Source: Bacillota bacterium
Lineage (GTDB): Bacteria > Bacillota_I > Bacilli_A > RF39 > UBA660
NCBI GenBank assembly: GCA_015059485.1
Contig: SVAH01000001.1
Location: 140,104-204,103 of the forward strand
Length of the DNA stretch: 64,000 nucleotides
Direction: 5' to 3'
A program made the translations under genes and the position numbers. The first letter of the stretch is position 1. The number at the start of each line of letters is the position of its first letter. Under the pieces are notes generated by a model. It worked only from the letters and a program-made list of their open reading frames with translations. It ran no database searches and had not been told where the DNA came from. Positions 6,773 through 57,636 of this stretch are shown in pieces.

Positions 6773-6803
6773 AATATCACATCCTAAAATCATTATATCA
6801 TAT

Positions 6804-6876: not shown

Positions 6877-6910
6877 TGTCAAAAAGTAAGTCGAATTTGA
6901 GCAAAGAAAA

Positions 6911-6933
6911 AGAACTATCAAATAAATAGTTCT
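6911..6933 (-). terminator. rho-independent terminator after the S51 peptidase gene
   Basis: agaactat / atagttct 8-bp stem with a 7-nt loop, followed on the minus strand by ttttctttg. Confidence 0.55.
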
Positions 6934-11209: not shown

Positions 11210-11255
11210 ATTAATCACCTCCTTTTTTTAGTTTTTTTTGAAGGGGTTATTTTAC

Positions 11256-11295
11256 CCCTTCTACTAGTAATATTACAAAAAAGTTTGCAATTTCC
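11256..11295 (-). promoter_or_regulatory. 40-nt conserved upstream element, copy 1 (upstream of comEA-comEC)
   Basis: Minus-strand reading GGAAATTGCAAACTTTTTTGTAATATTACTAGTAGAAGGG. It is 37/40 identical to 44138..44177 upstream of the bacteriocin-type ABC exporter. Confidence 0.55.
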
Positions 11296-11358
11296 TTTTT
11301 TTTCAGTGAAATTTATCAAAAAAATTATTTTTCAAATAAAAAAAAGATGTTTCCATCC

Positions 11359-16758: not shown

Positions 16759-16817
16759 AATATCACCATATACATTGTACCATAAAAAAGAACTAATGTT
16801 TACTAGTTCTTTTTAAT

Positions 16818-19016
16818 TTATTTAACAAAAATATCATTTATAAATTTCTTTAAAGTAGTTTTTCTATTAGTTGAATAATCATTATTAATCGCCACTTCAA
16901 AAGATGTTTGTTCCCCGATTAATACTAAACTTTTCTTAGCTCTAGAAACGCCTGTATATATTAATTTATTATATAACATCTTATTATAATTTTTTGATAT
17001 AGGCATAATAACATGAGGAAACTCACTTCCTTGAGATTTATGTATTGTAATGGCATAGGCATGTTTTATCATATTCATATCCTCTTTTTTATATTCAACA
17101 TAATTTCCATCAAAATCGATAGTTATTATATCAGTCTTTCTAGGATTCATTACCGTATCAATTGATTTAATATATCCAATATCTCCATTAAATACATTAC
17201 AATCAGGGTTATTAGCAAGCTGCAACACTTTATCATTTTCCCTAAATATTACCTGTCCAACCGTTGTTTCTTTTTTCTTTTTATCTTTTGGATTAAATAA
17301 TTCTTGCATTAATATATTTAAATTATCTATGCCATTTTCCCCCTTATACATTGGTGCAAGTATTTGAATATCTCTATCTTTTAACCCTTTTTTTATGGAT
17401 TTTTCAATAACTTTTTTAATCATTGTCTTTATATTAATTGACTCAACTGGTAAGAAATTATAATCATCTTTTTTATCCAAATAATTAGTAGATAAATTAT
17501 GTTCTTTTATTTCACGAGCAAGATATGCTATATATGAATTATCACTTTGACGATATATTTTTGATAATGGACAAAAGCTAAATTTATTTGATTCGATTAA
17601 ATCACTTAATATAAGACCATATCCAACAGATGGAAGTTGAAATGAATCTCCTACTAAAATAAGCTGTATATCACTATTTAAGCCTTTTAATAAAGAATCC
17701 ATTAAATAAGTATCTATCATGCTTACTTCATCCACTATTACAAGCTTATGGTGATTTTTATTATATTCATTAACTCCGAATGAATCAGTATCCTTATTCC
17801 ATTTTAAAAATCTATGAATAGTAGATGACGGTAAATGAGTTGATTCACTCATCTTTTTAGCAGCCCTTCCAGTTGGTGCTAAGAGTGCTATATTTGTTAT
17901 TATATCAATTGGAGATAGTTTATATGCCTCAACATATAATTTACATATTGCATTAATAATTGTAGTTTTTCCTGTTCCTGGACCACCAGATATAATAGTA
18001 ACCCTATTTTCCAAAGATTTCTTTATTGCATCTTCTTGTTCATTATTATAGTTAACATTCAAAATATCTTCTAAATCTTTTATTCTATCTTCAATGTTTT
18101 TAATTTTCTTTAAAGGATAATTAATAATATCTTTTAAATTTTCTGCAATATCAACTTCCATTTGAAAAATATTATTTAAATAATATCTATTATCATCCAC
18201 TATTATAAATTCATCATGAATTAAAGATTTTAATAAATTATCTATATATACTTCATCTAATATTAATTTAAACTTAGATCTAAGTACATCTATTATTTCT
18301 TCTTTAAAATAATATGTATCACCATTAGAATCTGATAATAATTGCATACCCTCTAGAATACATGCTTTAACTCTTATTTCATCATCATACGAATTATTAT
18401 TTAAAAATATAGAATCCAACTTATTAAATGAGATTATTTCTTTAAGTAAGTATATATTAGTATCTATTAAATTTAATGATTTATCTTTATATTTATTAAA
18501 TATTTTAATAGACTCTGGGATAGAAAATCCCAGTGTTTTAAGTTTAACAATCGTATCATCAGCTTGTGATGATGACACTACTGAATTATATATTTTGAAA
18601 GCTTTATCTTCACTTATACCCGGTACTAAAGTTAAGTTAGTATGAGATTCTTTAATCTTATTAAGAGTATCATCACCAAAATATTCTACTATCTTTTTAG
18701 CAGTCTTAGCGCCACAGCCTTTTATTAGCGAGCTAGACAGAAATTCAATTATACCTTCACTAGTAGTAGGAAGTATCTTTTCATAATTATTAAATTTATA
18801 TTGTTTGCCAAATCTTTCATGAGTAGTATATTCGCCATATAATATATAATTATCTTCACAATTTACATCTATAATATTGCCTGTAACTGTAATAGTTTTA
18901 TTTATTAAATCTTTTAAGCCTTCATCATTGGTTTCTTTAACACGAAAAAGACCGACAAAAAAACCATTGCTAGTTTCATAAATAGTGTTTTTAATCTTAC
19001 CTTTTATATAATTCAT
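16818..19016 (-). CDS. recD2: ATP-dependent RecD-like DNA helicase RecD2
   Basis: 732 aa, N-terminal HhH region, Walker A GGPGTGKTT, VDEVSM Walker B, C-terminal SH3-like region and YAITIHKSQGSE motif. Confidence 0.9.
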   Translation of the reverse strand: MNYIKGKIKNTIYETSNGFFVGLFRVKETNDEGLKDLINKTITVTGNIIDVNCEDNYILYGEYTTHERFGKQYKFNNYEKILPTTSEGIIEFLSSSLIKGCGAKTAKKIVEYFGDDTLNKIKESHTNLTLVPGISEDKAFKIYNSVVSSSQADDTIVKLKTLGFSIPESIKIFNKYKDKSLNLIDTNIYLLKEIISFNKLDSIFLNNNSYDDEIRVKACILEGMQLLSDSNGDTYYFKEEIIDVLRSKFKLILDEVYIDNLLKSLIHDEFIIVDDNRYYLNNIFQMEVDIAENLKDIINYPLKKIKNIEDRIKDLEDILNVNYNNEQEDAIKKSLENRVTIISGGPGTGKTTIINAICKLYVEAYKLSPIDIITNIALLAPTGRAAKKMSESTHLPSSTIHRFLKWNKDTDSFGVNEYNKNHHKLVIVDEVSMIDTYLMDSLLKGLNSDIQLILVGDSFQLPSVGYGLILSDLIESNKFSFCPLSKIYRQSDNSYIAYLAREIKEHNLSTNYLDKKDDYNFLPVESINIKTMIKKVIEKSIKKGLKDRDIQILAPMYKGENGIDNLNILMQELFNPKDKKKKETTVGQVIFRENDKVLQLANNPDCNVFNGDIGYIKSIDTVMNPRKTDIITIDFDGNYVEYKKEDMNMIKHAYAITIHKSQGSEFPHVIMPISKNYNKMLYNKLIYTGVSRAKKSLVLIGEQTSFEVAINNDYSTNRKTTLKKFINDIFVK

Positions 19017-19069: not shown

Positions 19070-20089
19070 TTAATAATCAATATCTGATAGAGGTACTTCT
19101 ATCGCTGGTCTTGCATAGTTCATAGATGTGACAGAATCATATGAAACATTTGAACTATAGGTATCTATATCAAATGCTGAATCATTTCTTCCATCAACTC
19201 CTGATTCAAGCCATATGTAATAAACAGAATTTGATGAATTACTGTAATTACTATCTTCAAGTAAGAAATTGCAAGAATATGAAAGCGGACCACCTGAATC
19301 CATAACGCCAACAGAATTATAACTAACAACTTGTGCAGGTATTGAACATCCAGCACTAACTTCTTGGTATGTTAATAATCTCGAAGCATAACCTGAATAA
19401 CTAAAGTTCAATTTTAATATGTTACCGGAACTATCCGTAATATGCCCAGATCTTATTTCTGGTGCATTTTTCCATTGTGTGGTATTATAAAGTTCATTTA
19501 AAGCATATTGTGGTCCATACGATGTATTACCATAATTGTTATAAGAAATATGGCCAGAAGAAAGACGATAAGTGTTACTTGTTTTAGCATATGCTAAAAC
19601 TGCAATATTTGAATCTGCTCTCATATGTCCATTATTCATAGTAGATACATAATAAAATCTTTCAGAATCGCTTTCATAATGTCCATTACCATTTACATCG
19701 CAATCAAACGCATCTCCAGCTTTTAAAGTCCCAGCAGTAGTTGAAATATTTCCATATGTTATAGTATCTCCATGACCATAAGTTTTATAATTATTTTGTA
19801 CGTGGCATGCACTTCCTGTCATACAAGTTTCAGTATGCAATGTTGATGTAGATGCCCTTTTACATAGTTTTTTTTCCGTACATGTATAACCTTCTGGACA
19901 TCTACTCTTACATTCTTGTGAAAGATTTAATAATTCAGTTAATGCACCATTAACTGTAGTTTCACTAGTTGCACTATTAGAATATAAAACTTGCTCAGAT
20001 GGAACGCTTACTGCATATGCTGCCATAGTAATTCCAAGTATAATACCCGTTAATATTCCAAATATCATTTTTGAAGATATTTTTTTCAT
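19070..20089 (-). CDS. secreted Cys-rich lectin-like protein, paralog 1
   Basis: Sec signal peptide (cleavage about AYA|VS). Shares CPEGYTCTEK...LHTETC...ITYGN...GDAFDCDVNG...RFYYVSTM...ARLLTYQEV...FLLE...WLE...RPAIEVPLSDIDY with the adjacent gene. Confidence 0.7.
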   Translation of the reverse strand: MKKISSKMIFGILTGIILGITMAAYAVSVPSEQVLYSNSATSETTVNGALTELLNLSQECKSRCPEGYTCTEKKLCKRASTSTLHTETCMTGSACHVQNNYKTYGHGDTITYGNISTTAGTLKAGDAFDCDVNGNGHYESDSERFYYVSTMNNGHMRADSNIAVLAYAKTSNTYRLSSGHISYNNYGNTSYGPQYALNELYNTTQWKNAPEIRSGHITDSSGNILKLNFSYSGYASRLLTYQEVSAGCSIPAQVVSYNSVGVMDSGGPLSYSCNFLLEDSNYSNSSNSVYYIWLESGVDGRNDSAFDIDTYSSNVSYDSVTSMNYARPAIEVPLSDIDY

Positions 20090-20125
20090 ATAATTACCTC
20101 CATTTCTATTTCAAAATATTTATTA

Positions 20126-21163
20126 TCAATAGTCTATATCCTCTAGTGGAACCTCAATTGCGGGGCGAACACCACAGTAGAGAGAGTTGCTGACGGCAGA
20201 GCCGCCGTTCACGTTACGGTAGTTCGAGTAGACTGACCAAGCGCGGTCAGTGCGACTCTCGACCGGAGTCTCTAGCCAAGGTCCGGTTGTTGAATTTGAA
20301 GAATTGGTATATTTAGTATTTTCTAATAAAAATTCACATTTACTATATATTCCATTATTTACCCCTAGATTAATTGAACCATTATAACACCCGTTATATA
20401 CTTCTTGATACGTTAAAAGTCTTGCTTGTGCTCTACCATAGTCAAAATCTACAACAGGTGTTCCAATTTCGTCAGTTATAAGTCTTGTAGATGATTTTAA
20501 ACTTACTCCTGGCCAACTAACTGGTGCATTTCCAGGTAAGTGTTTTTTTGCTGTAACAGGGCCTTTAGTATTCGAATTAGATGACAAACCAGTATCTGCC
20601 ATTGTTGCCCATGCTACACCTGTTGTATTATTATGTCCATTTACTACATTAGTATAATACACTAATACTGCATAGTTACTATCATTTACATCACTATGAC
20701 CTGCCATTGTTGATACATAATAGAATCTTGCTGCTTCTCCATTAACCATGTATGATCCATCACCCATTACATCGCAATCAAATGCATCACCTGTTGCTAA
20801 TGTTCCCTTAGTTCCTACATTACCATATGTTATAGAATGTCCATTTCCTCTTGTTTCTGCACAATGACCATATGATTGATTACATGTTTCTGTATGCAAC
20901 TCTGATGAATGCCCTACTCTTTTACATATTGGTCTTTTTTCTGTACACTCATATCCATCTGGGCATGTAGTTCCACATGTGTGTGCTGTATCAATAAGTT
21001 CGTCAAGAGTCCCTTTTACTGTCGTTTGACTAGTTAATGTGTGAGAATATGTTACTTCATTAGAAGTAATACTATTGGCGTATACTGCTATTGATATTCC
21101 TATTATTAAGCCTGCTATTGTACCAATTGAATAATCTTTAAAAAATTTTAATAATTTTTTCAT
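20126..21163 (-). CDS. secreted Cys-rich lectin-like protein, paralog 2, with GC-rich variable-region-like C-terminus
   Basis: Signal peptide (about VYA|NS), same conserved blocks as paralog 1. The C-terminal YWLE..AW.V.....GVRPAIEV pattern resembles DUF1566/C-type-lectin-like ligand-binding folds. Confidence 0.7.
   Translation of the reverse strand: MKKLLKFFKDYSIGTIAGLIIGISIAVYANSITSNEVTYSHTLTSQTTVKGTLDELIDTAHTCGTTCPDGYECTEKRPICKRVGHSSELHTETCNQSYGHCAETRGNGHSITYGNVGTKGTLATGDAFDCDVMGDGSYMVNGEAARFYYVSTMAGHSDVNDSNYAVLVYYTNVVNGHNNTTGVAWATMADTGLSSNSNTKGPVTAKKHLPGNAPVSWPGVSLKSSTRLITDEIGTPVVDFDYGRAQARLLTYQEVYNGCYNGSINLGVNNGIYSKCEFLLENTKYTNSSNSTTGPWLETPVESRTDRAWSVYSNYRNVNGGSAVSNSLYCGVRPAIEVPLEDIDY
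20129..20287 (-). other. GC-rich NNC-codon patch (candidate DGR variable region plus IMH)
   Basis: Abrupt composition switch. 21 of the 52 terminal sense codons end in C (AAC x4, TAC x3, GTC x3, CGC x3, GGC x2...), whereas the homologous stretch of paralog 1 uses ordinary AT-rich codons. Confidence 0.5.
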
Positions 21164-21202
21164 ATTCTCACCCTACTTTAAATAATTATAACATAAATTT
21201 TA

Positions 21203-21970
21203 TTAAAATAAATAAAATAATTTAACAATATTGTAAAATTTATCATAGTATAAAAATACTATAAATAAAGACGAAACAATGAATGGTCCAAATGGAACTT
21301 CATTATCTTTATTTAGTACAATTGTTGCAAGTGCATAAGGAAGTGCTAAGAAAGTGGAAAATATTAAAGATACCATAGATACTTGTATTCCAAGCACCAT
21401 TCCTATTACAAATGATAATTTAATGTCTCCTCCACCTAGCGCCTCTCGTTTATATATTTTTTTACCAATAAATCCTACGAGTAACATTATTATAAAAACC
21501 ACTAAGCCATATATTAATGATAAAAACGCTGTACTCCAATTATAATATACTACTTTTAATATAAAAATTAAAATAGATGATATTATAAGTGGCGAATCAA
21601 GTATTATCATGAATTTAAAATCACTTATAAATATTAAGATACTTAGTGAAGATAAGATTAAAGATATAAAAAACTCATAGGATATTCCAAAATATAAATA
21701 GCTAAATAAAAATAATATACCACAAGAAAGCTCCGATAAAAATAAATCATAAGGTAAATCATGATGACAATGTCTACATTTTCCTTTTTGCAATAAGTAT
21801 GAAAGAAGCGGTATATTTTCATACCACTTTAAAGGCGTATTACAATAATCACAATGACTCCCTGGTTTAACTATAGATTTATTTTGTGGCAATCTTAAGG
21901 CAACCACATTATAAAACGATCCCATAATTATTCCAAATATGAATAAAATAATTGAAAAATAAATAACCAT
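21203..21970 (-). CDS. pilD: prepilin peptidase (A24 family)
   Basis: N-terminal CDYC...CRHC zinc-binding pairs, polytopic membrane protein, GGGDIKL catalytic Asp motif. Confidence 0.85.
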   Translation of the reverse strand: MVIYFSIILFIFGIIMGSFYNVVALRLPQNKSIVKPGSHCDYCNTPLKWYENIPLLSYLLQKGKCRHCHHDLPYDLFLSELSCGILFLFSYLYFGISYEFFISLILSSLSILIFISDFKFMIILDSPLIISSILIFILKVVYYNWSTAFLSLIYGLVVFIIMLLVGFIGKKIYKREALGGGDIKLSFVIGMVLGIQVSMVSLIFSTFLALPYALATIVLNKDNEVPFGPFIVSSLFIVFLYYDKFYNIVKLFYLF

Positions 21971-38537: not shown

Positions 38538-39732
38538 TATCCTTTACCTCCATAACTTTAGCTTTTATATTTCCTTTATAAAACCTAATATTAATTTCGT
38601 CATCATCAGATAACATACTAGCCTCATTGATGACTTTATCATTCTTTGTGACTAAAGAATAACCATTTTCAAGTATATTAAGTGGGTTTACCAATTTTAA
38701 TGTATTAGTGGTCATTAACATTTGATGCATTTTATTTTTAAGTAAATTTTTTATAGTATTATTTAATCTATCAATATAGTTGTCTAATTTTTGCTCTTTT
38801 ATTTCATACATAGCAAGTGGATTTTTCAAAATATAAGAATCCTTTACTAATTTTAATCTATCTGATTTCAATTTTAAAAGATTTGCCATGAATTTATTGC
38901 TTCTAATTTGCAATTGATTAATTTTAAATACTACATCACTAATAGTTGGCACTGCCATTTCGGCTGCACCAGTTGGAGTCGGCGCTCTCAAATCAGCTAC
39001 AAAATCCGCAATTGTAAAATCTATTTCATGACCTACAGCACTTATAACTGGTGTTGTCATATCAAATATAGCACGCGCAACTATTTCTTCATTAAATGCC
39101 CATAAGTCTTCAATAGATCCACCCCCACGTCCACATATAATAACATCTAAATCATACTCATCAGCTTTTTTTAGCTGTCTTACTATATCTTCTTTAGCGT
39201 ACTCTCCTTGTACTAGGCATGGAAATAGTATAGTTTCACATATTGGATATCTTCTTTTGATAGTAGATAAAATATCTTTTATTGCAGCACCAGTTGGAGC
39301 TGTTATAATACCAATTTTTGATGGATATTTAGGTATCTGCTTTTTAAATTTTTCATCAAACAAACCTTCTTGAGTTAATTTCTTTTTTAACTTTTCAAAT
39401 TCAATGTATAAATTTCCAAGGCCATCTAAATCCATTTTGTCTACATATATCTGGTATGCACCAGTTGCAGGATAAGTAGATATTCTACCTTCCACTAGTA
39501 CATTCATACCATCCTCTGGTTTAAAATTTAAATTATGAGCATTACCAGCAAACATAACTGCTGAAAGACGTGAATTTTCATCTTTTAAGGTAAAATATAA
39601 ATGTCCCCTGGTATGATTTTTAAAATTAGATATTTCACCCTTCAAAAATACCCTTTGCAAGTGAGGATTATTATCAAACATTGCTTTTAAATAATTATTT
39701 AATCTAGTAATTGATATATACTTATCTTGCAT
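38530..39732 (-). CDS. xseA: exodeoxyribonuclease VII large subunit
   Basis: OB-fold N-terminus (ISNFKNHTRGHLYFTLKD), catalytic core GRGGGSIEDLW.FNEE.VAR, 400 aa. Confidence 0.9.
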   Translation of the reverse strand: MQDKYISITRLNNYLKAMFDNNPHLQRVFLKGEISNFKNHTRGHLYFTLKDENSRLSAVMFAGNAHNLNFKPEDGMNVLVEGRISTYPATGAYQIYVDKMDLDGLGNLYIEFEKLKKKLTQEGLFDEKFKKQIPKYPSKIGIITAPTGAAIKDILSTIKRRYPICETILFPCLVQGEYAKEDIVRQLKKADEYDLDVIICGRGGGSIEDLWAFNEEIVARAIFDMTTPVISAVGHEIDFTIADFVADLRAPTPTGAAEMAVPTISDVVFKINQLQIRSNKFMANLLKLKSDRLKLVKDSYILKNPLAMYEIKEQKLDNYIDRLNNTIKNLLKNKMHQMLMTTNTLKLVNPLNILENGYSLVTKNDKVINEASMLSDDDEINIRFYKGNIKAKVMEVKDNG

Positions 39733-40648
39733 GTTTATCTCCTGTTATAATATTCTTTCCTATTAATAATTCAGTAATTTTTTTATAATTTTTTTCATAA
39801 TTTTTAATAATATTCAATTTATACATATTTGATGTAAATTTTCCATTTGCTTCTTCTATTTTCTCAATTAATCCAACAAAAGTTTCTACATCTAAAGTAT
39901 TATACATTTCTAGAAACATTTCTTTATATTTATCACTGCTATTTAAAAAATTATATAAAGTTTCTTCTTTTGTTTCGTTATAATTTGAAAACTTCATTCT
40001 CGGAGAAAAATATAAATCAAATGATAATTCATTATCAAACATTTTAGATAAAACTGGTGGTTTTAAAGGGGAAAGTAAAACTGCCCAATTTTTCATATGT
40101 CTATCGCTTTGCATAGTTAAATAATCAAAGCAAAATCTCACAGCCATTTCATCCATTATTTTATCTATTATTTCATCTTTATTATCCAAATAATCAAAAT
40201 AATAATACAACGCATCATGTATTGTCTTCATATTATTCATGCATTCAAGCGCATCATTTTTATCTAAATACGTTAAATCTTTCAATAATCCTTCTTCTTT
40301 TAAATATTCATAATAATAATCTAAAAAATATAAGCCGTAAAAAGCTTTTGAACCGTATTCATTATAATCTTCCATCATTATTCCATATTTATTCTTAAAT
40401 TTATTTTTATCATCCTTAAAACAAGCCATGTGAACTTTAATACAATTTATTTTTAAAAATTGTGCTAAATTAGAAATAATAATTTCATTAAATGATGACT
40501 CTAATGCAGGTAACCCATCTGGCCCTTTTGGTGCAGGCTTAAATACATATTTGTTACCACCTGTTAAAAAGCATATAACTTTTTCTAAATTTTCACTATC
40601 TGAAATAGATTTTTTATCTATATTAAAACTATTACTTATTATATCCAT
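39722..40648 (-). CDS. HipA-like / PI-kinase-fold protein kinase domain protein
   Basis: FDYLTMQSDRHMKNWAVL (D-R-H-x-x-N catalytic loop as in the HipA C-terminal domain) followed by MFDNELSF. Wedged between nusB (2-nt gap) and xseA (11-nt overlap). Confidence 0.5.
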   Translation of the reverse strand: MDIISNSFNIDKKSISDSENLEKVICFLTGGNKYVFKPAPKGPDGLPALESSFNEIIISNLAQFLKINCIKVHMACFKDDKNKFKNKYGIMMEDYNEYGSKAFYGLYFLDYYYEYLKEEGLLKDLTYLDKNDALECMNNMKTIHDALYYYFDYLDNKDEIIDKIMDEMAVRFCFDYLTMQSDRHMKNWAVLLSPLKPPVLSKMFDNELSFDLYFSPRMKFSNYNETKEETLYNFLNSSDKYKEMFLEMYNTLDVETFVGLIEKIEEANGKFTSNMYKLNIIKNYEKNYKKITELLIGKNIITGDKHAR

Positions 40649-41122: not shown

Positions 41123-41278
41123 CTATTTGTTCTTTTTTACCATACAATTCGCTTCATCTAACATCGAATTAATCAATTTGTTAGCATTCTTCTTTGTTTC
41201 ATTATTCATTAAAACATATGTAGTTAAACCAGCTGTTGTAATCATGGTAAGTCCTATTAAACCCATAGCTTTTTTCAT
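41123..41278 (-). CDS. small membrane protein (51 aa; candidate immunity protein, speculative)
   Basis: MKKAMGLIGLTMITTAGLTTYVL TM helix plus a charged tail. AAGGATGTGA RBS before ATG 41278. Sits immediately downstream of the bacteriocin-like genes but after their terminator. Confidence 0.4.
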   Translation of the reverse strand: MKKAMGLIGLTMITTAGLTTYVLMNNETKKNANKLINSMLDEANCMVKKNK

Positions 41279-41332: not shown

Positions 41333-41367
41333 ATATAAAACAAAAGAGACCAATAAATAGTCTCTTT
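41333..41367 (-). terminator. rho-independent terminator after the double-glycine peptide genes
   Basis: aaagagac / gtctcttt stem followed on the minus strand by tgttttatatt. Confidence 0.6.
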
Positions 41368-41374
41368 AAAATAT

Positions 41375-41530
41375 TTAACACCAACTTCTAGATATTGCTC
41401 TTCTAATTGATGTACCAACGGTTCTCCCTAAATCTAGAATAGTATTTATAGCACGACTTGCAGCATTAATGTAAGTAGCTGTTAATCCTCCACCACTTAC
41501 ATTTATTAGTTCATGTTTTTCTAATTTCAT
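41375..41530 (-). CDS. double-glycine-leader peptide 2 (51 aa): MKLEKHELINVSGG|GLTATYINAASRAINTILDLGRTVGTSIRRAISRSWC
   Basis: Not in the ORF track (under 60 aa). The ATG overlaps the upstream stop (TAATG). The leader fits the L-x-x-x-E-L-x-x-(I/V)-x-G-G consensus. The mature part has a GxxxG (GRTVG). Confidence 0.75.
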   Translation of the reverse strand: MKLEKHELINVSGGGLTATYINAASRAINTILDLGRTVGTSIRRAISRSWC

Positions 41531-41673
41531 TATTTATGACACTTCAATGGTCTTATAAGCCCATCGATTACCCCTACTATAAATACTCCGCCTGCTATAA
41601 TAGCTGCTAATGCTGCTCTAGAAATTGCTCCGCCTGTTATGTTATTCATTGTTTCATTACTAAGTCTATTCAT
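41530..41673 (-). CDS. double-glycine-leader peptide 1 (47 aa): MNRLSNETMNNITGG|AISRAALAAIIAGGVFIVGVIDGLIRPLKCHK
   Basis: Not in the ORF track. ATG overlaps the upstream stop (ATGA), GGAG RBS. GG leader, hydrophobic mature peptide with GxxxG (GVIDG). Confidence 0.75.
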   Translation of the reverse strand: MNRLSNETMNNITGGAISRAALAAIIAGGVFIVGVIDGLIRPLKCHK

Positions 41674-42083
41674 TTAAAAACTCCTTTCAATATTTTTTTA
41701 ACAATGTAATCTTTATCAAAATAAAAAGTTAAATCTACTATTTCATTTTCTTTTTTATTTTGAATATTCGTTTTTATTATGACATCTTGTAAGCTAGTAT
41801 TTCCATCATTATATATTTCACTAAATTCATAGATTTTAAAATTTGAAACGGTATTATCAATTTTTATTTTTTTGCTTTTTTTTATTACTGAAATATTAGA
41901 TGTATTTACTGGGACGATTAACTCATTTTTACTTATAATACCTTTGATATGAATTTTACTATAAGTTTTATAATTTAAAATTAAAAGGAAGGACAATACT
42001 ATTATAGTTATATAAAATATTAATAAGAACATTAATGAAAAAGGTTTAGAATAAATAAAATTCATATTATTATAAGTTTTCAT
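41670..42083 (-). CDS. small single-TM accessory protein of the peptide-export operon
   Basis: 137 aa, N-terminal TM helix then a beta-rich domain. It occupies the position of the HlyD-type accessory protein in C39-ABC bacteriocin loci but is much shorter. Confidence 0.45.
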   Translation of the reverse strand: MKTYNNMNFIYSKPFSLMFLLIFYITIIVLSFLLILNYKTYSKIHIKGIISKNELIVPVNTSNISVIKKSKKIKIDNTVSNFKIYEFSEIYNDGNTSLQDVIIKTNIQNKKENEIVDLTFYFDKDYIVKKILKGVFK

Positions 42084-42084: not shown

Positions 42085-44127
42085 TTAATCCCCTATCTTT
42101 AAGCATTTTTCAAACATTGATTCATGTTCTTTATGAGTTACGTATATTAACGTTCTATTTCTTAATTCATTTTTTAGATTACCTATAATATTTCTTTCTA
42201 ACTCAATATTTACCTCACTTAATGCTTCATCTAGAATTAAAATTTTAAAATTCCGATAAAGAGCTCTTGCTAATATAATTCTTTGTTTCTCTCCTCCTGA
42301 TAAATTGCTAAAATCTTTATCAATATAAGTTTCATAACGAAGTGGCTTTTTTGAAACTATTTCATCTAAACAACATATTTTAGCAATTTTATCAAATTTT
42401 TCTACATCATATTTTTTATTTAATAAAATATTATTTTTTATTGTGTCATTAAACAAGAATTCATTTTGAGACAAATACAAAATATTATTTCTAACAGTTT
42501 TTAAAGGATAATCTTTGATATTAATACCTCCTATACAAATACTTCCATTATCATATTCATAAGTTCTATTTAAAAGCTTGCAAAAAGTACTTTTTCCAGT
42601 TCCACTTTTTCCTTTAATCATAACTTTAGAATACTTAGGTATAATTAAATTAACATTATTTAATGTTTTATTATAATCATTATAAGAATAACTCATATTT
42701 TTAACTATTATATCTCCGTTTAAAAATTTAGTACTTTCATCTAATACTTCACCTTCCAAAGAATTAAACTCTAATATCTTCTCAAAAGAAGCTTTAAGAT
42801 AATTAAATTTTGGAAATAGATTCATTATATTTTTTAATGGTTCAACCAAGTACACTAGGACTGACTCAAAAGTAATGAAATCAACTAATGATAAATTATT
42901 ATGTAAAAACTCTATAATACCAACAGTTATGATAGTATAATACATAAAATCTATTATAGCATTCTTTAAAGTATTAATAATATTTAACCTTTTAGTAATA
43001 TCAAAATTAGTTTTCAAATAACTAATTAAACTATTATTAATCTTCAATTTTGCATAGTTTTCTAAAGAATTGTTTTTAATTGTATCAAAAGCATTACACT
43101 TTTCAATTACATCACTACTAAAGGATTCATTACTTTCGATATTTTCTTTTATCATATTATAAATCATTTTATTAGTAACTAAACATATTCCTACAAACAG
43201 AATTAAAAATATAATAAGTATTAATAGAAGTTTAGAATTAATAAAATATAATACAACAAATGTCATAATAACAAGCAAACTGTTGATAAATAATGTTACT
43301 ACTATATCTGAGACAAATTCATGAAGATTATTAAGTTCTGTAACTCTAGTAATTATTTCACCAACATTTCTACTTTTTAGTACTCTAGAAGGAAGATTAA
43401 AAAGTTTATCAAAAAAATTATTATTTACATTGAAATCAATGTTTTTTATAAGGTAATTTTTTAAATATGTAGACAATAACTCAAGGAAAATTTTAGTAAA
43501 ATAACAGAAAAAGAAAATTATAAATAATATTTTTAATAGTTTATTATCATCTACATTATTAAAGCATACCTTAAAATAAAAACCTGTGATTATTGTAAAA
43601 ATTACATTAAATAATCCAAACAACATTATTTTTATAACTAAACTTTTTTCACTTTTAATAATTTTTGTAATTGATTTTACAAGTGAGTTCTTCTTATAGT
43701 TTGCTATATAAGTAGACTTTAAATAGCAAACTATTATAACATTAGTAAAAACTTTTTTAAATTTTTCTAACTCAAACTTCACTATTCCTTTTGATGGATC
43801 CATTACTATTACAAATTTTTTGGTAATTTTATAGATAACTACATAATGGTTTAGTCCATTTTCTAAGCATAAATGTGCAATAACTGGTAAAACCAAATTT
43901 TTTTCATTAAGCTTATCAAATGCAATCTTGGCGCCATAAGAATCAAAACCATATTTAGTTAATGTGTTTACCATATGAAATGCAGTAGTTCCAGAGTTAT
44001 CTGTAAAACAATCACTCCTAATTTTTTCTAAAGGAACATAACCACCATAGTATTTTAATATTGATAAAATACATGCTGGGCCACAGTCTTTAAAATCGCG
44101 TTGTTTGACTACTTGAAATTTTTTCAT
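42085..44127 (-). CDS. peptide-cleaving/exporting ABC transporter with N-terminal C39 peptidase domain
   Basis: C39 domain (QRDFKDCGPACILSIL catalytic Cys; HYVVIYK His), 6-TM domain, Walker A GKSGTGKST, signature LSGGEKQR, Walker B ILILDEA. Confidence 0.9.
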   Translation of the reverse strand: MKKFQVVKQRDFKDCGPACILSILKYYGGYVPLEKIRSDCFTDNSGTTAFHMVNTLTKYGFDSYGAKIAFDKLNEKNLVLPVIAHLCLENGLNHYVVIYKITKKFVIVMDPSKGIVKFELEKFKKVFTNVIIVCYLKSTYIANYKKNSLVKSITKIIKSEKSLVIKIMLFGLFNVIFTIITGFYFKVCFNNVDDNKLLKILFIIFFFCYFTKIFLELLSTYLKNYLIKNIDFNVNNNFFDKLFNLPSRVLKSRNVGEIITRVTELNNLHEFVSDIVVTLFINSLLVIMTFVVLYFINSKLLLILIIFLILFVGICLVTNKMIYNMIKENIESNESFSSDVIEKCNAFDTIKNNSLENYAKLKINNSLISYLKTNFDITKRLNIINTLKNAIIDFMYYTIITVGIIEFLHNNLSLVDFITFESVLVYLVEPLKNIMNLFPKFNYLKASFEKILEFNSLEGEVLDESTKFLNGDIIVKNMSYSYNDYNKTLNNVNLIIPKYSKVMIKGKSGTGKSTFCKLLNRTYEYDNGSICIGGINIKDYPLKTVRNNILYLSQNEFLFNDTIKNNILLNKKYDVEKFDKIAKICCLDEIVSKKPLRYETYIDKDFSNLSGGEKQRIILARALYRNFKILILDEALSEVNIELERNIIGNLKNELRNRTLIYVTHKEHESMFEKCLKIGD

Positions 44128-44137: not shown

Positions 44138-44177
44138 CCCTTCTACTAGTCATATTACAAAAAAGTTTGTGATTTCC
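44138..44177 (-). promoter_or_regulatory. 40-nt conserved upstream element, copy 2 (upstream of the C39 ABC exporter)
   Basis: Minus-strand reading GGAAATCACAAACTTTTTTGTAATATGACTAGTAGAAGGG, 37/40 identical to 11256..11295. Its 3' GAAGGGAG doubles as the RBS 8 nt before the ATG. Confidence 0.55.
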
Positions 44178-44266
44178 TTCTTTTTTCCAAAAAAAAATTA
44201 AAAAACTTGCATTTTTTAACTTTTTTACATATATTTTTACGCTTTAAAAAGTATATTTAGTGTAAA

Positions 44267-44983
44267 TTATCTTTTTTCTTTCTTCTTTTTATATACCAAT
44301 TTCATAATTTTAAATTCTTTAAAATGATCAGCATTTATTTTTGGAAAAGCTTGAAGCAACCTTTTAGGGTAAATTTTAAAATTGCTTACTCTTTTCTTTA
44401 ATATGCTATTAAAGACTTGAGGTATCTTAGCCAATTTTTCATTTTTTAATTCTTCAACAATAATTAATCTATTTCTTAAATTATATGCAACTATTACTGA
44501 ATAAATAGTGTCAATTAACAGAATAATTAAAGAAATCGTTGAAAAAATAATCCATGATTTATAACTAAATAAATATAATAACTTATCTATAAATGGGCCA
44601 CATACGCAAATAATTAAAAAGCCTCCTATTCCAAATAAAATCGTATTTAAAAGACACACTCTGCCGTTTAAATTAAACCTATAATCAAAATAGTCCCACC
44701 ACATATTATGGAAGATTTTTTCTAAAATAACACTTGTTAAATACTCTAAAATCGTACAAATAATTGCACTGAACACAAAGACAACAAGTGGATCTTCTCT
44801 GTAACTTGTTAATGTACACACCATAAATACTGCTCCAAAACCATATATTGGTAAAAATGGGCCACATAAAAATCCTCTATTAGTTATTCCTTTTGTTTTG
44901 ATAGCCATATATATCATTTCACAAATATATCCTACTACACTATATATAACAAACAATAAATACAAGTACACTAAATTCTTCAT
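44267..44983 (-). CDS. polytopic membrane protein (putative ABC-transporter type IV / DUF1113-like family)
   Basis: FVIYSVVGYICEMIYMAIKTKGITNRGFLCGPFLPIYGFGAV matches the conserved N-terminus of that family. Confidence 0.55.
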   Translation of the reverse strand: MKNLVYLYLLFVIYSVVGYICEMIYMAIKTKGITNRGFLCGPFLPIYGFGAVFMVCTLTSYREDPLVVFVFSAIICTILEYLTSVILEKIFHNMWWDYFDYRFNLNGRVCLLNTILFGIGGFLIICVCGPFIDKLLYLFSYKSWIIFSTISLIILLIDTIYSVIVAYNLRNRLIIVEELKNEKLAKIPQVFNSILKKRVSNFKIYPKRLLQAFPKINADHFKEFKIMKLVYKKKKEKR

Positions 44984-53070: not shown

Positions 53071-53772
53071 TTATCCAGTTATTAATTCTATTAGTACAGG
53101 TGATAAAATTATTAAAAGTATTAAAGGTATAAATAGAAGCACTGATACAATGCTTATCTTAGTTGGCAATTTAGCTATTCTAGCCTTTATTTCCATTAAT
53201 TCCTTATTTCTTAAATAATCTAATTGATTATTTATTGAATTTATTATATTACTTCCAAAAATAGAAGATTCTGTCATATTTAAAATAGTATTATTTATAG
53301 TGTCAGATGGAATCCTTTCTTTCATAGCTTTTAGACTTTCAATTAAACTTTTACCCATCTTTACTTCACTTAATGTCTTTTTAAATTCTTTAGAAAGCTT
53401 ACTATCTACATTATTTGCTGTTATTTCTAATGCTTGTGATAATGTTCTCCCACTTTCAAGTGTTAACTCTAATATTTCAAAAAAGAATATTGCTTCATGT
53501 TCAAGCTCTAGGCCTCTTTTTTTAGTTGGATAATCAATAAGTAAATATGTTATTCCAATATAATATATTAAAGTAAAAAGAGGTGCTGTAATATAACTAT
53601 ATTTAGAAAACACACCAAATAATATAAAAATTAATAAACTACCAATCAAACGATAATATAAAAATTTTCTTACATTTAATGTTGTATCATCCGATAATAA
53701 TTCTATTTTAACATTATATTTTTTTATAATCTTTTTTGGATATATTTTATCTATAAAACTACGTTTTTTCAT
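53071..53772 (-). CDS. tadC: Tad pilus inner-membrane platform protein TadC-like (T2SSF)
   Basis: 233 aa, T2SSF-type domain between TM helices, adjacent to tadB/tadA. Confidence 0.7.
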   Translation of the reverse strand: MKKRSFIDKIYPKKIIKKYNVKIELLSDDTTLNVRKFLYYRLIGSLLIFILFGVFSKYSYITAPLFTLIYYIGITYLLIDYPTKKRGLELEHEAIFFFEILELTLESGRTLSQALEITANNVDSKLSKEFKKTLSEVKMGKSLIESLKAMKERIPSDTINNTILNMTESSIFGSNIINSINNQLDYLRNKELMEIKARIAKLPTKISIVSVLLFIPLILLIILSPVLIELITG

Positions 53773-54773
53773 TATATCTCCACCTTTAATAACTTTTTAA
53801 TAACATATATATACATCGCATATAAACTTAGAATCAAAATTAATATTCCAAATCCAATTGAAGATGAAAATAATGGTAAGAAGTACTGATTGTTTAGTAC
53901 AGTTATTAACGCTACAAAAATAAGTGGTAAAAGAGCTAATATTCTAAAGACAAATACTGATGAAGCAGTTAAACTACTTAATTCCGTTTTTAGTTTTTTC
54001 TTATCAAAAAATGAGTTTTCTATCATATTAAATACTTTTATAATATTACCGCCTGTTTTATTTAAAAGAGTTAAGGACGATGCAATATATTTAGCATCTT
54101 CTATTTTTACTCTGTTATAGAATCTACTAAATACTGTATCTAGTGATAAGCCATAAGAAATATCTAAAGATATTTTTTTAAATTCTTCAGCAATAGGTCC
54201 ATCTAACTCTGTTTTTACAGTTTCTATTGCTTGCATGATATTCCTTCCAGATTTAAAAGAATTATTCATTATTATAATCGCTTTAAGCAAATCATCTTCT
54301 ACACGTTTTTTATTTCTATTTCTTCTGTATACAATTATTATATTCGGAGTAAAATATCCAACTATAAAGCCAATTAGAATCTTGATAAAATCAAAACTAA
54401 ATCCTTTTACAATAATTGTAAAGAAAGTACAAATAGATAGGAATATACCAACTAATATTTTAATTGAAATAAAATCTAGACCATTTCTAATTCTACCATT
54501 TACCTTTGAATCTCTATCAAACTTACTACTATGTTTTTCTATTACCTTAGAAACATTTATTAGTTTACTTACTTTATAAACTAATTTAAAGAAAAAAGTT
54601 GCAATTTTTTCATATAAAGATACTTCTCTATCATTTACAGATAATAATGAAAAATCAGAGAACTTTTTTTCATAATCATATGATTTTAAAGACTTTATCA
54701 CTTGCATTGCTATAAATACTAAAATAAGTACTATAAATGTTTCAGTAAGTATTATTAAAAGTGTATTTTCCAT
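53772..54773 (-). CDS. tadB: Tad pilus inner-membrane platform protein TadB-like (T2SSF)
   Basis: 333 aa, T2SSF-type domain (AIIIMNNSFKSGRNIMQAIE...), TM helices at both ends. Confidence 0.7.
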   Translation of the reverse strand: MENTLLIILTETFIVLILVFIAMQVIKSLKSYDYEKKFSDFSLLSVNDREVSLYEKIATFFFKLVYKVSKLINVSKVIEKHSSKFDRDSKVNGRIRNGLDFISIKILVGIFLSICTFFTIIVKGFSFDFIKILIGFIVGYFTPNIIIVYRRNRNKKRVEDDLLKAIIIMNNSFKSGRNIMQAIETVKTELDGPIAEEFKKISLDISYGLSLDTVFSRFYNRVKIEDAKYIASSLTLLNKTGGNIIKVFNMIENSFFDKKKLKTELSSLTASSVFVFRILALLPLIFVALITVLNNQYFLPLFSSSIGFGILILILSLYAMYIYVIKKLLKVEI

Positions 54774-54796
54774 TATTATCCTCCCTTTCTAATTAT

Positions 54797-56134
54797 TTAT
54801 TTTTTAAATGGTTCAAATATATCATCAACATCATTCACTCCACGTCTTTCTATTTTCCTATATACACGTGGTATTCTTTCATAAAGAACATATTCACCAT
54901 CAACTTCATTATTATTAGTTATACCATTTTGTTTAAATTCAAATATTTTTGATAATTCTAACTTATCATCATTAAATCCTTTTATTTCAGATATAGATGT
55001 TACTTTTCTTTTTCCATCACTCATTCTTTCTATATTTACAACTAAATCTATAGCTGAATTTATATATTCACGAATTGCCTTAACAGGTATTTCAAGTCCA
55101 GCCATAAGAATCATTGTCTCAAGCCTATTTAAAGCATCTTCGCAACTGTTTGCATGTAGTGTAGTTAAAGATCCATCATGTCCTGTATTCATTGCTTGCA
55201 ACATATCAAAAGCTTCTTTTCCACGAACTTCTCCAACAATTATTCTATCTGGTCTCATACGAAGGGAATTTATAACTAAATCTCTAATAGTTATTTCTCC
55301 TCCACTTTCATAGTTAGCAGTTCTAGTTTCAAGTGATATTACATGGCTTTGTTTTAATTTTAATTCTGCAGCATCTTCAATAGTTATAATTCTTTCGTCA
55401 TGTGATATAAATCCGCTTAATATATTTAAAAGCGTTGTTTTACCACTACCAGTACCACCACATACAATAATATTAAGTTTTCCCTTAACTGCTGCTTCTA
55501 AGAATCTTGCCATATATGGTGTAAGTGTTCCTATTCTAATTAAATCTTCAATATCAGTCATTGATTCTTTAAACTTACGTATTGTTACTACAGGGCCTTT
55601 AGTAGATAATGGTGGTATTACTGCATTAATACGAGAACCATCAGAAAGTCTTGAATCAACCATTGGATTGGCAGCATCTATTGTTCTACCTAATGGTTCA
55701 ATTAAGCGTTGAATAGTTCTAACTATATGTTCGTCGTTTATAAATGATACTCCATCGTCTTTAATCAATTGTCCATCAATTTCTATATAAATATCTTCTG
55801 GAGAATTAACCATTATCTCCGTAACATTTTTATCTTTTAAAAGTTCTGTTAAAGGTCCATATCCATTTATTTCATTATCAATTAAATTATATAAATGACT
55901 TCTCTCTAAATTAGTTAAATCATATCCAAATATAGTTTGATCAATTTCATCATTTATAAACTCTGAAATTGTCTTACCAGTAGGAATTTCTTTGTCTATT
56001 AAATTTTCGACTATTTTTGTACGTAATTTATCTAATAATTTTTTATCAGGAAAGATATCATAATCAGATAGATCAGAAAAATTATTAACTTCTCTTTTTA
56101 TATTAAATGCATCATATAAACTATGTCTACTCAT
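54797..56134 (-). CDS. tadA: CpaF/TadA family secretion ATPase
   Basis: Walker A GGTGSGKTT, Asp box, Walker B, His box (TGHDGSLTTLHAN). Confidence 0.9.
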   Translation of the reverse strand: MSRHSLYDAFNIKREVNNFSDLSDYDIFPDKKLLDKLRTKIVENLIDKEIPTGKTISEFINDEIDQTIFGYDLTNLERSHLYNLIDNEINGYGPLTELLKDKNVTEIMVNSPEDIYIEIDGQLIKDDGVSFINDEHIVRTIQRLIEPLGRTIDAANPMVDSRLSDGSRINAVIPPLSTKGPVVTIRKFKESMTDIEDLIRIGTLTPYMARFLEAAVKGKLNIIVCGGTGSGKTTLLNILSGFISHDERIITIEDAAELKLKQSHVISLETRTANYESGGEITIRDLVINSLRMRPDRIIVGEVRGKEAFDMLQAMNTGHDGSLTTLHANSCEDALNRLETMILMAGLEIPVKAIREYINSAIDLVVNIERMSDGKRKVTSISEIKGFNDDKLELSKIFEFKQNGITNNNEVDGEYVLYERIPRVYRKIERRGVNDVDDIFEPFKK

Positions 56135-56900
56135 TATTATCCTCCTTATTCTTTAAAAGATCCGCAGCTATTGTTGTGAAAGTAGCATATTCTTTCGAAA
56201 AAATGTTAGCCATTTTCCTTTGTAATGTAACTATTTGTCCGCTCATTACATAATCATCCATATTTTTTATAAAAAAGTTTGATGATAATGTATAATCTAT
56301 ATTAGCTTTCATAATATTTTTCATATCAAATAATGAAAAGTAATACTTATAAGGATTAACACTATTATTTAAAAGAATTTTATAATTATTTAAATCTAAA
56401 TCTCTAAATACGCTTATTATTGATTTCATATTTTTTAAATCTTTAGGGTCATTTGTCATAATAAACAAAATATCATCTACATTATCAAGTGTAACTATAT
56501 TAATTTCAGATAATGAATGATCCATATCAATTATTACTAAATCATAACTGTTTACAGCTTTATCTATTACTAAATCGATATACTTACTATCAATTTTAGA
56601 GGCCTGTCTAGGATCTTTAGGACTTGATAATATATCAATATAATCATCATATTTTGTAACATATTTGCTAAATTCAAAGTGTCTATTATTTTCATAATCA
56701 TCAATTAAATTGAATATACTTTTTTCACATGGAAGATTTAAAGAAATAGCTACTCCACCATTAGATAAATTCATGTCTATTATTAATACTTTTTTTTCTA
56801 TTGTTTCTAATATTCCTGCAAGATTTAATGCAGTTGTTGTTTTACCAACACCACCTTTAGCAGAAAATATTCCTACAGAAGTTCCTCTTTTATTTATCAT
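56127..56900 (-). CDS. CpaE/TadZ-like ParA/MinD-type ATPase
   Basis: Deviant Walker A SAKGGVGKTT. Overlaps the tadA start. Confidence 0.75.
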   Translation of the reverse strand: MINKRGTSVGIFSAKGGVGKTTTALNLAGILETIEKKVLIIDMNLSNGGVAISLNLPCEKSIFNLIDDYENNRHFEFSKYVTKYDDYIDILSSPKDPRQASKIDSKYIDLVIDKAVNSYDLVIIDMDHSLSEINIVTLDNVDDILFIMTNDPKDLKNMKSIISVFRDLDLNNYKILLNNSVNPYKYYFSLFDMKNIMKANIDYTLSSNFFIKNMDDYVMSGQIVTLQRKMANIFSKEYATFTTIAADLLKNKEDNNE

Positions 56901-56909
56901 GCTATCCCT

Positions 56910-57299
56910 CTATTCTTTTATTACTTTTATTTTATTCTTTTCTTTATATCCTTTTATGCTTGTTTTAATTTTATATTTTTTTAAACCTATTATTTTTCCA
57001 AAAATACTATCTATTTCATAATAGTTTTTAATTTTTAAATATTCTTCCTTCTTATCTATTTTTACATTTTCATAATTTATTTTATTTTTCTTATATAAAT
57101 TATAAATCTTATCTTCCATATCATTATCAAATCTATTATCAAACATTTCTTTAATTATAGTTTTAGTAGTGCTGTCTAATTTAATTTTTTCATTTGTCAT
57201 GTAGGAAACATCAACTACTAAAGCAAGCATCATTATCAAAAGTGGTATTAATATTACAAACATTATTAACGTTTGACCTTTTTTATTTAATTTATTCAT
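56910..57299 (-). CDS. TadE/TadG-like pseudopilin
   Basis: KKGQTLIMFVILIPLLIMMLALVVD N-terminus typical of TadE/G-like proteins. Confidence 0.6.
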   Translation of the reverse strand: MNKLNKKGQTLIMFVILIPLLIMMLALVVDVSYMTNEKIKLDSTTKTIIKEMFDNRFDNDMEDKIYNLYKKNKINYENVKIDKKEEYLKIKNYYEIDSIFGKIIGLKKYKIKTSIKGYKEKNKIKVIKE

Positions 57300-57636
57300 T
57301 ATATATCACTCTTTTAACTTCAACATTATAAGGATTTTTAAATATCAAATTTAAACCAGGCGTTACTATTTCAATTTGTTTCGATAATTTAAATTCAAGA
57401 TATTCATCTTTATCATTAATTACTATTTTTGTATCTTTTAAATCATTATGAACATTCTTTTTTATTTCTTTTAGGCTTTTATTATTTTCCTTCATTACTA
57501 TAACATCATTTAACTTGTTTTCTAATCTATTTTTTGTATAGTATATTTTTCCAATATCAATTGTAGCAAGTATCATAAAAACAAAAATAGGTAATATAAG
57601 CACAAATTCAACCAATGCTTGCCCTTTCTTATTCAT
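57292..57636 (-). CDS. TadE-like pseudopilin
   Basis: KKGQALVEFVLILPIFVFMIL N-terminal TadE motif. Confidence 0.7.
   Translation of the reverse strand: MNKKGQALVEFVLILPIFVFMILATIDIGKIYYTKNRLENKLNDVIVMKENNKSLKEIKKNVHNDLKDTKIVINDKDEYLEFKLSKQIEIVTPGLNLIFKNPYNVEVKRVIYNE

Follow-up and report, generated by a model that had tools for sequence, protein, structure and literature searches.

Class IIb, or two-peptide, bacteriocins such as lactococcin G, plantaricin EF/JK, and enterocin 1071 are encoded by two adjacent genes and are small, cationic peptides made without modification enzymes. Their double-glycine (GG) leaders are cleaved by ATP-binding cassette (ABC) exporters that carry a C39 peptidase domain, and the mature peptides use GxxxG motifs for helix-helix contacts. 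Class IIb operons normally carry an immunity gene, and an HlyD-type accessory protein of ~450 amino acids (aa) is known from other class II systems. A C39 ABC exporter that processes a GG-leader peptide is also tied to competence in streptococci, where ComAB handles ComC, a single short pheromone; there, ComB is a large protein of the HlyD type and the ComDE sensor adjoins. In Streptococcus pneumoniae, the cibABC genes encode a two-peptide bacteriocin with its immunity protein; they are induced by ComX, are switched on with the late competence genes, and are used in fratricide (PMC5295010). Here, we analyzed a 64-kilobase (kb) stretch of contig SVAH01000001.1 of a Bacillota bacterium (the window), in which a C39 ABC exporter, a 137-aa membrane protein, and two small GG-leader peptides, hereafter peptides A and B, are encoded in a single operon. 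From its sequence and that of its relatives, we judge it fairly probable (about 60%) that the product made and exported by this operon is an unmodified two-peptide bacteriocin resembling those of class IIb.

On the minus strand of the window, the order of the operon is promoter-like element, exporter gene, 137-aa gene, peptide A gene, peptide B gene, and terminator. The promoter-like element (AAGGAAATcaCAAACTTTTTTGTAATATgACTAGTAGAAGGG, positions 44138 to 44179) ends 10 nucleotides (nt) before the exporter start codon, and the intergenic region 5' of the exporter gene measures 139 nt. The exporter (680 aa, positions 42085 to 44127) consists of an N-terminal C39 cysteine peptidase followed by transmembrane and ATPase domains, and its stop codon lies 1 nt from the start of the gene for the 137-aa protein (positions 41670 to 42083). 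The latter overlaps the peptide A gene by 4 nt (ATGA). The peptide A precursor (47 aa, MNRLSNETMNNITGGAISRAALAAIIAGGVFIVGVIDGLIRPLKCHK, positions 41530 to 41673) has an AAAGGAG ribosome-binding site 5' of its start codon, and its gene shares 1 nt (TAATG) with that of the peptide B precursor (51 aa, MKLEKHELINVSGGGLTATYINAASRAINTILDLGRTVGTSIRRAISRSWC, positions 41375 to 41530), the last gene before the terminator. The terminator-like hairpin (positions 41343 to 41367, minus strand) begins 8 nt past the peptide B stop codon; its 10-bp stem includes 3 G-C pairs and is followed by a tail rich in T (AAAGAGACTATTTATTGGTCTCTTT TGTTTTATAT), as expected of an intrinsic terminator. G+C content is ~25% across the whole window. 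A preliminary description of this DNA had singled out the two open reading frames (ORFs) as a putative two-peptide bacteriocin, and our rereading of the window agreed with its ORF positions, its translations, and both overlaps; the Pfam domains and the hairpin likewise bore out its placement of a C39 exporter and a small accessory gene upstream, and of a terminator downstream, of the peptide genes.

The exporter matched three Pfam domains with high significance (Peptidase_C39, E value = 4.6e-34; ABC_membrane, E value = 6e-28; ABC_tran, E value = 5.5e-26). In its translation, the Cys, His, and Asp residues of the C39 peptidase stand in their usual contexts (DCG, NHYVV, and MDP), and the ATPase motifs (Walker A, signature, and Walker B) are readable. 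Against NCBIfam, it scored 371 bits with TIGR01193 (bacteriocin_ABC, peptide cleavage/export; E value = 1.3e-110, cut-off 523.85), whose C39-membrane-ATPase architecture it fits, and 347 bits with NF045998, the Mbov_0121 family C39 ABC transporter (cut-off 500).

Both precursors begin with a leader of the double-glycine pattern, hydrophobic at positions -4, -7, and -12, and we infer that each is cleaved after its GG. The peptide A leader (MNRLSNETMNNITGG, GG at residues 14 and 15) has L-12, M-7, I-4, G-2, and G-1, and it scored just above the cut-off of the NCBIfam leader model TIGR01847 (16 bits versus 15.7); the peptide B leader (MKLEKHELINVSGG, GG at residues 13 and 14) has L-12, E-8, L-7, V-4, G-2, and G-1. 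Mature peptide A is predicted to be 32 aa long (AISRAALAAIIAGGVFIVGVIDGLIRPLKCHK), with a net charge of +3 and a transmembrane-like, 19-residue stretch of mean Kyte-Doolittle hydropathy 2.41. Mature peptide B is predicted to be 37 aa long (GLTATYINAASRAINTILDLGRTVGTSIRRAISRSWC), with a net charge of +4, and to form an amphipathic helix; its hydrophobic moment of 0.70 was reached in 17 of 2000 shuffled sequences. The two peptides would thus have complementary characters, A hydrophobic and cationic and B amphipathic and cationic, as is typical of class IIb pairs. Each predicted mature peptide contains one GxxxG motif (GVIDG in A and GRTVG in B) and exactly one Cys, which lies near the C terminus in a cationic tail; the translations confirm this part of the preliminary description as well. 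No candidate modification enzyme was seen among the genes adjoining the cassette when the window and the related loci were read, domain searches not having been run on every flanking gene. A lantibiotic, sactipeptide, or lipoprotein explanation of the Cys was rejected, as no modification enzyme was seen and there is no lipobox.

The mechanism that we propose runs as follows. Precursors A and B would be translated from one transcript together with the exporter, whose cytoplasmic C39 domain would cut each precursor after its GG before the transporter exports the mature peptides, probably with the assistance of the 137-aa membrane protein. Outside the cell, A (32 aa) and B (37 aa) would pair in the target membrane through their single GxxxG motifs and make that membrane leaky, and the single Cys near each cationic C terminus may join the two by a disulfide. 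Transcription would start from a sigma-H-like promoter nearly identical to that of comEA-comEC, so that the peptides would probably be made together with the DNA-uptake genes; by analogy with pneumococcal CibAB, such timing would fit the killing of neighbors to release their DNA.

Relatives of both peptides are numerous and of constant size. Single-sequence searches returned a handful of full-length relatives for each (44 to 88% identical). A profile of peptide A run against 1.84 billion representative sequences then retrieved 287 proteins at an E value of <=1e-3, almost all of them 44 to 52 aa long, and a profile search with peptide B yielded 104 clusters, nearly all of 49 to 57 aa; these carried no Pfam domain and no informative name. 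In the peptide A family, 139 of 150 sequences have a Cys near the C terminus 7 residues past a GxxxG motif; the core G-x-x-D-G-x-x-R-P-x-x-C, usually G-[VI]-[IV]-D-G-x-x-R-P-x-x-C, is present in 135 of 150, and the mature part has exactly one Cys in 130 of 150. Residues G34, D37, and G38 are invariant in an alignment of 31 sequences, and the C-terminal G-x-x-D-G-x-x-R-P-L-K-C is invariant or nearly so in the alignments. In the peptide B family, GxxxG occurs in all 104 sequences, 103 have G[RKEQ]xxG with a Cys near the C terminus 12 residues beyond it, and exactly one Cys is present in 100. In a 78-sequence alignment, leader residue G14 together with G35, R36, G39, and C51 was invariant. Compared with two relatives, the window gene for A had a ratio of nonsynonymous to synonymous substitution rates (dN/dS) of 0.36 and 0.49, and that for B had a ratio of 0.15.

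Gene order is conserved along with the sequences. A scan of one genome per species gave 23 loci, all from gut metagenome-assembled genomes labeled as uncultured Bacilli, Tenericutes, or Erysipelotrichaceae, with one labeled Muribaculaceae. The exporter, A, and B follow in that order in every one of them, and the accessory gene is present in 22. A metagenome scan seeded solely with the peptide A motif DG[ILF][VIL]RPLKC gave 51 loci, in which a B-type gene lay directly 3' of A wherever there was enough flanking sequence, with two exceptions (44 of 46), and the accessory gene was found in 29 of the 41 loci with room for it. The contigs with relatives of A or B carry, in this order, the exporter, a protein of ~137 aa, A, and B; in the most distant relative (L009), the accessory protein has only 60 aa. 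Across ~70 loci, the pairing of A and B genes is strict. The cassette is accessory and sits at different chromosomal sites; truncated or decayed copies occur in a few contigs (L087, L088, and L091), and intact copies are the rule. Because relatives of the same size are full length, dN/dS lies below 0.5, and gene order is kept, the comparison indicates that both peptides are the products of real, conserved genes.

Known families do not account for these peptides. Neither mature peptide matched a Pfam, NCBIfam, or PDB family at threshold. Peptide A scored 15.1 bits (E value = 0.023) with Pfam PF10439, Bacteriocin_IIc, below the gathering threshold of 27.1 bits, and peptide B matched no curated family in Pfam or NCBIfam. 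Among family members, there were subthreshold Bacteriocin_IIc matches in 17 of 31 A and 13 of 78 B sequences, and weak subthreshold matches to Pfam ComC in 5 of 31 A and 10 of 78 B. Membership in Bacteriocin_IIc, LcnG-beta, or ComC was therefore rejected, as the Pfam and NCBIfam scans gave subthreshold matches only. Profile searches with the A, B, and accessory families against PDB sequences returned nothing meaningful, and no relevant paper came up when the full-text literature was searched for RPLKC, LGRTVG, LGRSLG, and VGVIDG, which are motifs of the peptides. The peptide families thus appear to be uncatalogued yet widespread. Set against the described class IIb systems, with which it shares two adjacent genes, GG leaders, C39 export, and small cationic GxxxG peptides made without modification enzymes, the window pair differs as follows: its mature parts are not similar in sequence to any member that has been curated or solved, both peptides have a single invariant Cys at a fixed spacing, and no immunity gene is evident in the operon. 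It differs from other class II systems in its accessory protein, a single-pass protein of ~140 aa rather than one of the HlyD type.

The cysteines deserve separate treatment. A peptide that has a single Cys cannot form a bridge within itself. Since each Cys stands at a fixed spacing from the GxxxG motif and both lie in cationic C-terminal tails, a parallel dimer packed through GxxxG would bring the two together, and an intermolecular A-B disulfide through the C-terminal Cys residues can reasonably be hypothesized from the sequences. One locus, L085 (positions 197 to 483), is the sole informative case of Cys co-loss: both partners lack the Cys while their leaders and GxxxG motifs are intact, A ending in RPLKTLKKRK and B in GTALRKLLKK (…GQIVGTALRKLLKK). 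Four further loci have Cys-less members, of which those in L087, L088, and L091 are truncated or decayed and that in L090 is too near the contig end to judge. The preliminary description had raised the intermolecular disulfide as speculation, and the fixed Cys spacing and the L085 pair lend it indirect support. We know of no class IIb pair with one invariant Cys per peptide at a fixed spacing, and a disulfide-linked heterodimer would, to our knowledge, be the first such class II bacteriocin.

Next, we considered the 137-aa protein. An alignment of its homologues shows a short basic N terminus, one transmembrane helix, and a strand-rich domain of ~90 aa that contains a CxxxC pair in many of them; this arrangement suggests an N-in, C-out topology. 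The protein had no match in Pfam. It aligned over its full length with NCBIfam NF045999, the MAG1140 family (18.3 bits, E value = 0.002), below the cut-off of 35 bits, and 10 of 28 accessory homologues matched the same model, all below the cut-off (best E value = 6.5e-5). The partner family of NF045999 is NF045998, which is among the best matches of the exporter. The pair, named after Mbov_ and MAG locus tags, thus resembles the window system in both components, the accessory component having no other catalogued family that resembles it, but all window scores are below the curated cut-offs. The 137-aa protein is therefore probably a distant relative of the MAG1140 family and not a member. A single-sequence AlphaFold model of it was too poor to use (predicted local distance difference test, 57; predicted template modeling score, 0.34), and a full-text literature search for Mbov_0121 and MAG1140 found incidental mentions only and, in the library covered, nothing functional. 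Judging from the position of its gene, the protein is probably an export accessory; that it is an immunity protein may also be considered and is less likely. In two related sequences, P0164 (190 aa) and P0237 (185 aa), gene calling yields a single ORF in which the accessory protein is fused to peptide A. This fusion probably reflects a lost stop codon at an ATGA-type junction or a gene-calling artifact; if real, it would conflict with the topology suggested above.

As to immunity, 26 of 42 related metagenome loci contain a third small ORF (44 to 60 aa), which overlaps the end of the peptide B gene (for example, L036, positions 4311 to 4487; L039, 1832 to 2002; L042, 1188 to 1364; and L066, 4310 to 4474); it is absent from the clade of the window. 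Its product has no GG leader and consists of one transmembrane helix followed by G-[RK]-x-x-G-T-x-x-R, often with a terminal Cys, and resembles the C-terminal half of peptide B. It is plausible that this protein confers immunity by mimicking B. In the window itself, a multipass membrane protein (positions 44267 to 44983, minus strand) matching Pfam PF06541 (ABC_trans_CmpB, E value = 1.6e-46) is encoded directly upstream of the exporter on the same strand, as it is in L011, L012, L013, L018, L019, L021, L024, L028, and L040; a hairpin separates this gene from the exporter promoter in L011 and L012. No NCBIfam family covers this CmpB-like protein, and PF06541 is itself uncharacterized. As an immunity candidate, the protein is weak and speculative; its gene either could be the marker of an ancestral insertion site or could have a functional link to the cassette. 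Immediately downstream of the cassette, 13 of the 23 genome loci encode a protein whose N terminus is pilin-like (for example, L013, positions 6159 to 7031; L017, 6220 to 6984; L018, 6261 to 7856; and L030, 6203 to 7780); no such gene adjoins the window cassette. These proteins are 250 to 530 aa long, start with MKNNNKGFIAISLIYSFFLVFL without the usual Glu5, and match no Pfam or NCBIfam family. They are weak candidates for the immunity protein of the window clade.

The promoter-like element suggests a connection between the operon and DNA uptake. The 42-nt sequence AAGGAAATnnCAAACTTTTTTGTAATATnACTAGTAGAAGGG has exactly two sites in the window, 39 of 42 positions being identical between them, and no match was found in shuffled sequences. 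The second copy (positions 11256 to 11297, minus strand) lies upstream of comEA (positions 10457 to 11218) and comEC (positions 8479 to 10497). The element shared with comEA that the preliminary description had mentioned is thus real, with 0 such matches expected by chance. It is laid out as a -35-like box (AAAGGAAAT), a 12-nt spacer, a -10-like box (TGTAATAT), and a leader that runs into the ribosome-binding site of the exporter. A relaxed search of the window recovered the two known sites and one intragenic match at chance level. The architecture recurs in relatives: the region upstream of comEA in L001 has AAGGAAAT-N12-TGTAATAT with a different spacer sequence, AGGAAA(T)-N12-13-TGTATATAT stands upstream of ~20 related exporters in the genome loci, and AAAGGAAAT is kept at several more distant exporters. 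The sigma-H consensus is RMAGGRWWW at -35 and RRMGAAW at -10 and, in Listeria, it precedes comGA, comEA, and coiA (PMC4754846). The -35 box AAAGGAAAT fits RMAGGRWWW. As the promoter is nearly identical to that of comEA-comEC, the peptides are probably made when the DNA-uptake genes are on, and we infer that the exporter-peptide operon is coregulated with these genes by an alternative sigma factor or an activator. The locus would in this respect resemble CibAB/CibC of S. pneumoniae, in which two GG-leader peptides are likewise expressed with DNA-uptake genes. It differs from that system in having AAAGGAAAT-N12-TGTAATAT in place of the ComX cin-box, in having its own exporter in the operon, in the lack of a visible counterpart to cibC within the operon, and in its unrelated peptide sequences.

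Two further features were seen near copies of this promoter. Just downstream of the element at comEA, the leader (positions 11240 to 11261, minus strand) can fold into a perfect hairpin, GAAGGGG-TAAAATAA-CCCCTTC, followed by an A run, which may be a regulatory structure; in the exporter copy of the element, the same GAAGGG is the ribosome-binding site. In three related genome loci, L015 (positions 3069 to 3287), L027 (3109 to 3309), and L030 (3065 to 3277), a small protein resembling XRE-type helix-turn-helix regulators is encoded directly 5' of the exporter promoter. This protein, which the window lacks, may be a local regulator.

Several observations weigh against a two-peptide bacteriocin made with the DNA-uptake genes. 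No immunity-like ORF was seen in the window operon, where the terminator directly follows peptide B. For a toxin in an arms race, the conservation of the mature cores across genera is unusually high, and neither mature peptide reached the threshold of a known bacteriocin family or matched a solved class IIb peptide. As to the promoter, its -10 box TGTAATAT does not fit the sigma-H consensus RRMGAAW, no gene for sigma-H or ComX was seen in the window, and coregulation is deduced from promoter identity in one genome together with promoter architecture in relatives. Moreover, the anoxic gut habitat would disfavor an extracellular disulfide. On the other side stand the GG leaders, the coupled operon behind a C39 exporter, the invariant GxxxG motifs, the strict pairing, and the fact that no modification enzyme was seen. 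The proposal of a two-peptide bacteriocin in the preliminary description is accordingly upheld in these features and falls short in the immunity gene, which was not found in the window. Its claim that the bacteriocin is new holds insofar as no curated family covers A or B; the family itself is widespread in gut metagenomes. Its proposed check of peptide conservation turned up many full-length relatives of the same size for both A and B, and the pattern of disrupted peptide ORFs beside a retained exporter is not what the relatives show, intact copies prevailing. The most elaborate version, in which an A-B disulfide heterodimer, competence-coupled killing in uncultured low-G+C gut Bacilli or "Tenericutes"-type bacteria, a sigma-H-like comEA-comEC promoter, and sister-lineage immunity through a B-mimic membrane protein are all combined, is one that we regard as doubtful.

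Other functions were weighed against the same evidence. In one, A and B would form an exported membrane-peptide complex that does not kill; during competence or in stationary phase, it might act on the envelope of the producing cell itself, for example by permeabilizing, remodeling, or anchoring, the Cys serving for covalent attachment. The very strong conservation of the mature cores, especially G-V-I-D-G-x-x-R-P-L-K-C of A, speaks for such a role, as do the absence of an immunity gene in the window clade, the conserved promoter in common with DNA-uptake genes, and the protein with a pilin-like N terminus that is so often encoded next to the cassette. However, cationic and amphipathic character combined with GxxxG is what pore-forming two-peptide bacteriocins display, the immunity-like third small membrane ORF in many related loci implies toxicity, and the cassette is accessory, at different chromosomal sites, and decayed in some contigs. 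Furthermore, we know of no precedent for GG-leader peptide pairs with a nonkilling role at the envelope, and we consider this explanation unlikely.

Equally improbable, in our estimation, is that one or both peptides are secreted pheromones, comparable to ComC, or competence-stimulating peptide, exported by ComAB, that report density and induce competence. GG leaders with a C39 ABC exporter, the promoter in common with comEA-comEC, and the weak subthreshold ComC matches would suit a pheromone, which would also need no immunity gene, and none was seen in the window. In addition, the Phr peptide genes of Bacillus subtilis are driven by sigma-H promoters. However, mature peptides of 32 and 37 aa that are transmembrane-like or amphipathic and have an invariant GxxxG are unlike known short pheromones, and the strict pairing of the A and B genes also counts against this function. 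Pheromones usually diversify into pherotypes, whereas the mature-core motifs here are invariant or nearly so across many species. The genes for a histidine kinase, a response regulator, or an RRNPP-type receptor were not seen beside the cassette when the loci were read, the flanking genes not having been domain searched. In streptococci, comEA-comEC are late genes, and a promoter in common with them is the pattern of an effector and not that of an inducer. The window system thus resembles ComAB/ComC in its predicted C39 export of GG-leader peptides and its probable tie to competence but departs from it in having two long hydrophobic or amphipathic peptides and no adjoining sensor gene that could be seen. 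The preliminary description had offered a signaling pheromone as its alternative, and peptide size, hydrophobicity, pairing, conserved cores, and the lack of a visible sensor gene nearby make that alternative the less likely one. Finally, that the two ORFs are chance frames or decayed remnants without function, which their shortness (47 and 51 codons), the frequency of spurious ORFs at a genomic G+C content of 25%, and the truncated copies in L087, L088, and L091 might suggest, is effectively refuted by the comparative data, namely, hundreds of full-length relatives of the same size, dN/dS of <0.5, invariant motif spacing, synteny, conserved translational coupling, and the ribosome-binding site before peptide A.

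If the bacteriocin interpretation is correct, these genes represent a large, uncatalogued family of two-peptide bacteriocins in uncultured, small-genome gut Bacilli and Erysipelotrichales-like bacteria, with carriers from humans, mice, rabbits, and ruminants. The predicted cleavage sites and invariant motifs would make the peptides directly synthesizable as narrow-spectrum antimicrobials. The fixed single Cys of each partner points to a disulfide-linked heterodimer, possibly a new architecture, and the 137-aa protein, as kin of the uncharacterized MAG1140 family, may be a minimal partner of peptide-cleaving ABC exporters. Moreover, the promoter shared with comEA-comEC suggests competence-linked killing beyond the streptococci, which would bear on gene movement among gut bacteria that are not yet cultured.

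The genomic setting of the cassette differs between the window and L001. In L001, the cassette (positions 2 to 2760) lies directly upstream of the block ygjP-spoU-rimM-trmD…ruvAB-comEA, ~5.6 kb upstream of comEA and on the same strand. The window contains the same ygjP-comEA block at 8.5 to 16.8 kb without the cassette, there being a 60-nt gap (positions 16758 to 16818), and the cassette is found ~25 kb away, flanked on one side by the PF06541 gene and on the other by a small membrane ORF that neighbors nusB. This comparison indicates a change in the position of the cassette. Identity between the two is 90% for TrmD, 82% for YgjP, 68% for the exporter, and 59% for ComEA. Recent horizontal transfer was rejected, since the exporter is 68% identical to that of L001 and housekeeping proteins are 82 to 90% identical.

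Other genes of the window were read as well. By eye, positions 53071 to 57636 (minus strand) appear to hold a Tad/Flp-type pilus-like cluster with CpaF-like and TadZ-like ATPases and TadE-like small proteins. At positions 19070 to 21970 (minus strand), two paralogues of ~340 aa, both of which have a Cys-rich region and a transmembrane segment at the N terminus, are encoded next to a protein with a prepilin-peptidase-like N terminus (positions 21203 to 21970). The pilus and prepilin-peptidase names come from reading the translations only, the two paralogues matched no NCBIfam family, and the shared promoter element was not found at the pilus-like genes or at those of the 340-aa proteins. The small membrane ORF between the peptide B terminator and nusB (MKKAMGLIGLTMITTAGLTTYVLMNNETKKNANKLINSMLDEANCMVKKNK, positions 41123 to 41278, minus strand) has its own ribosome-binding site and its own terminator (positions 41119 to 41096) and encodes a one-helix membrane protein without a known family. 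Between xseA and nusB, a 308-aa protein (positions 39722 to 40648, minus strand) has a HipA_C-like kinase domain (Pfam, E value = 2.7e-7, just above the cut-off), and its gene is an unusual insertion in a conserved housekeeping block.

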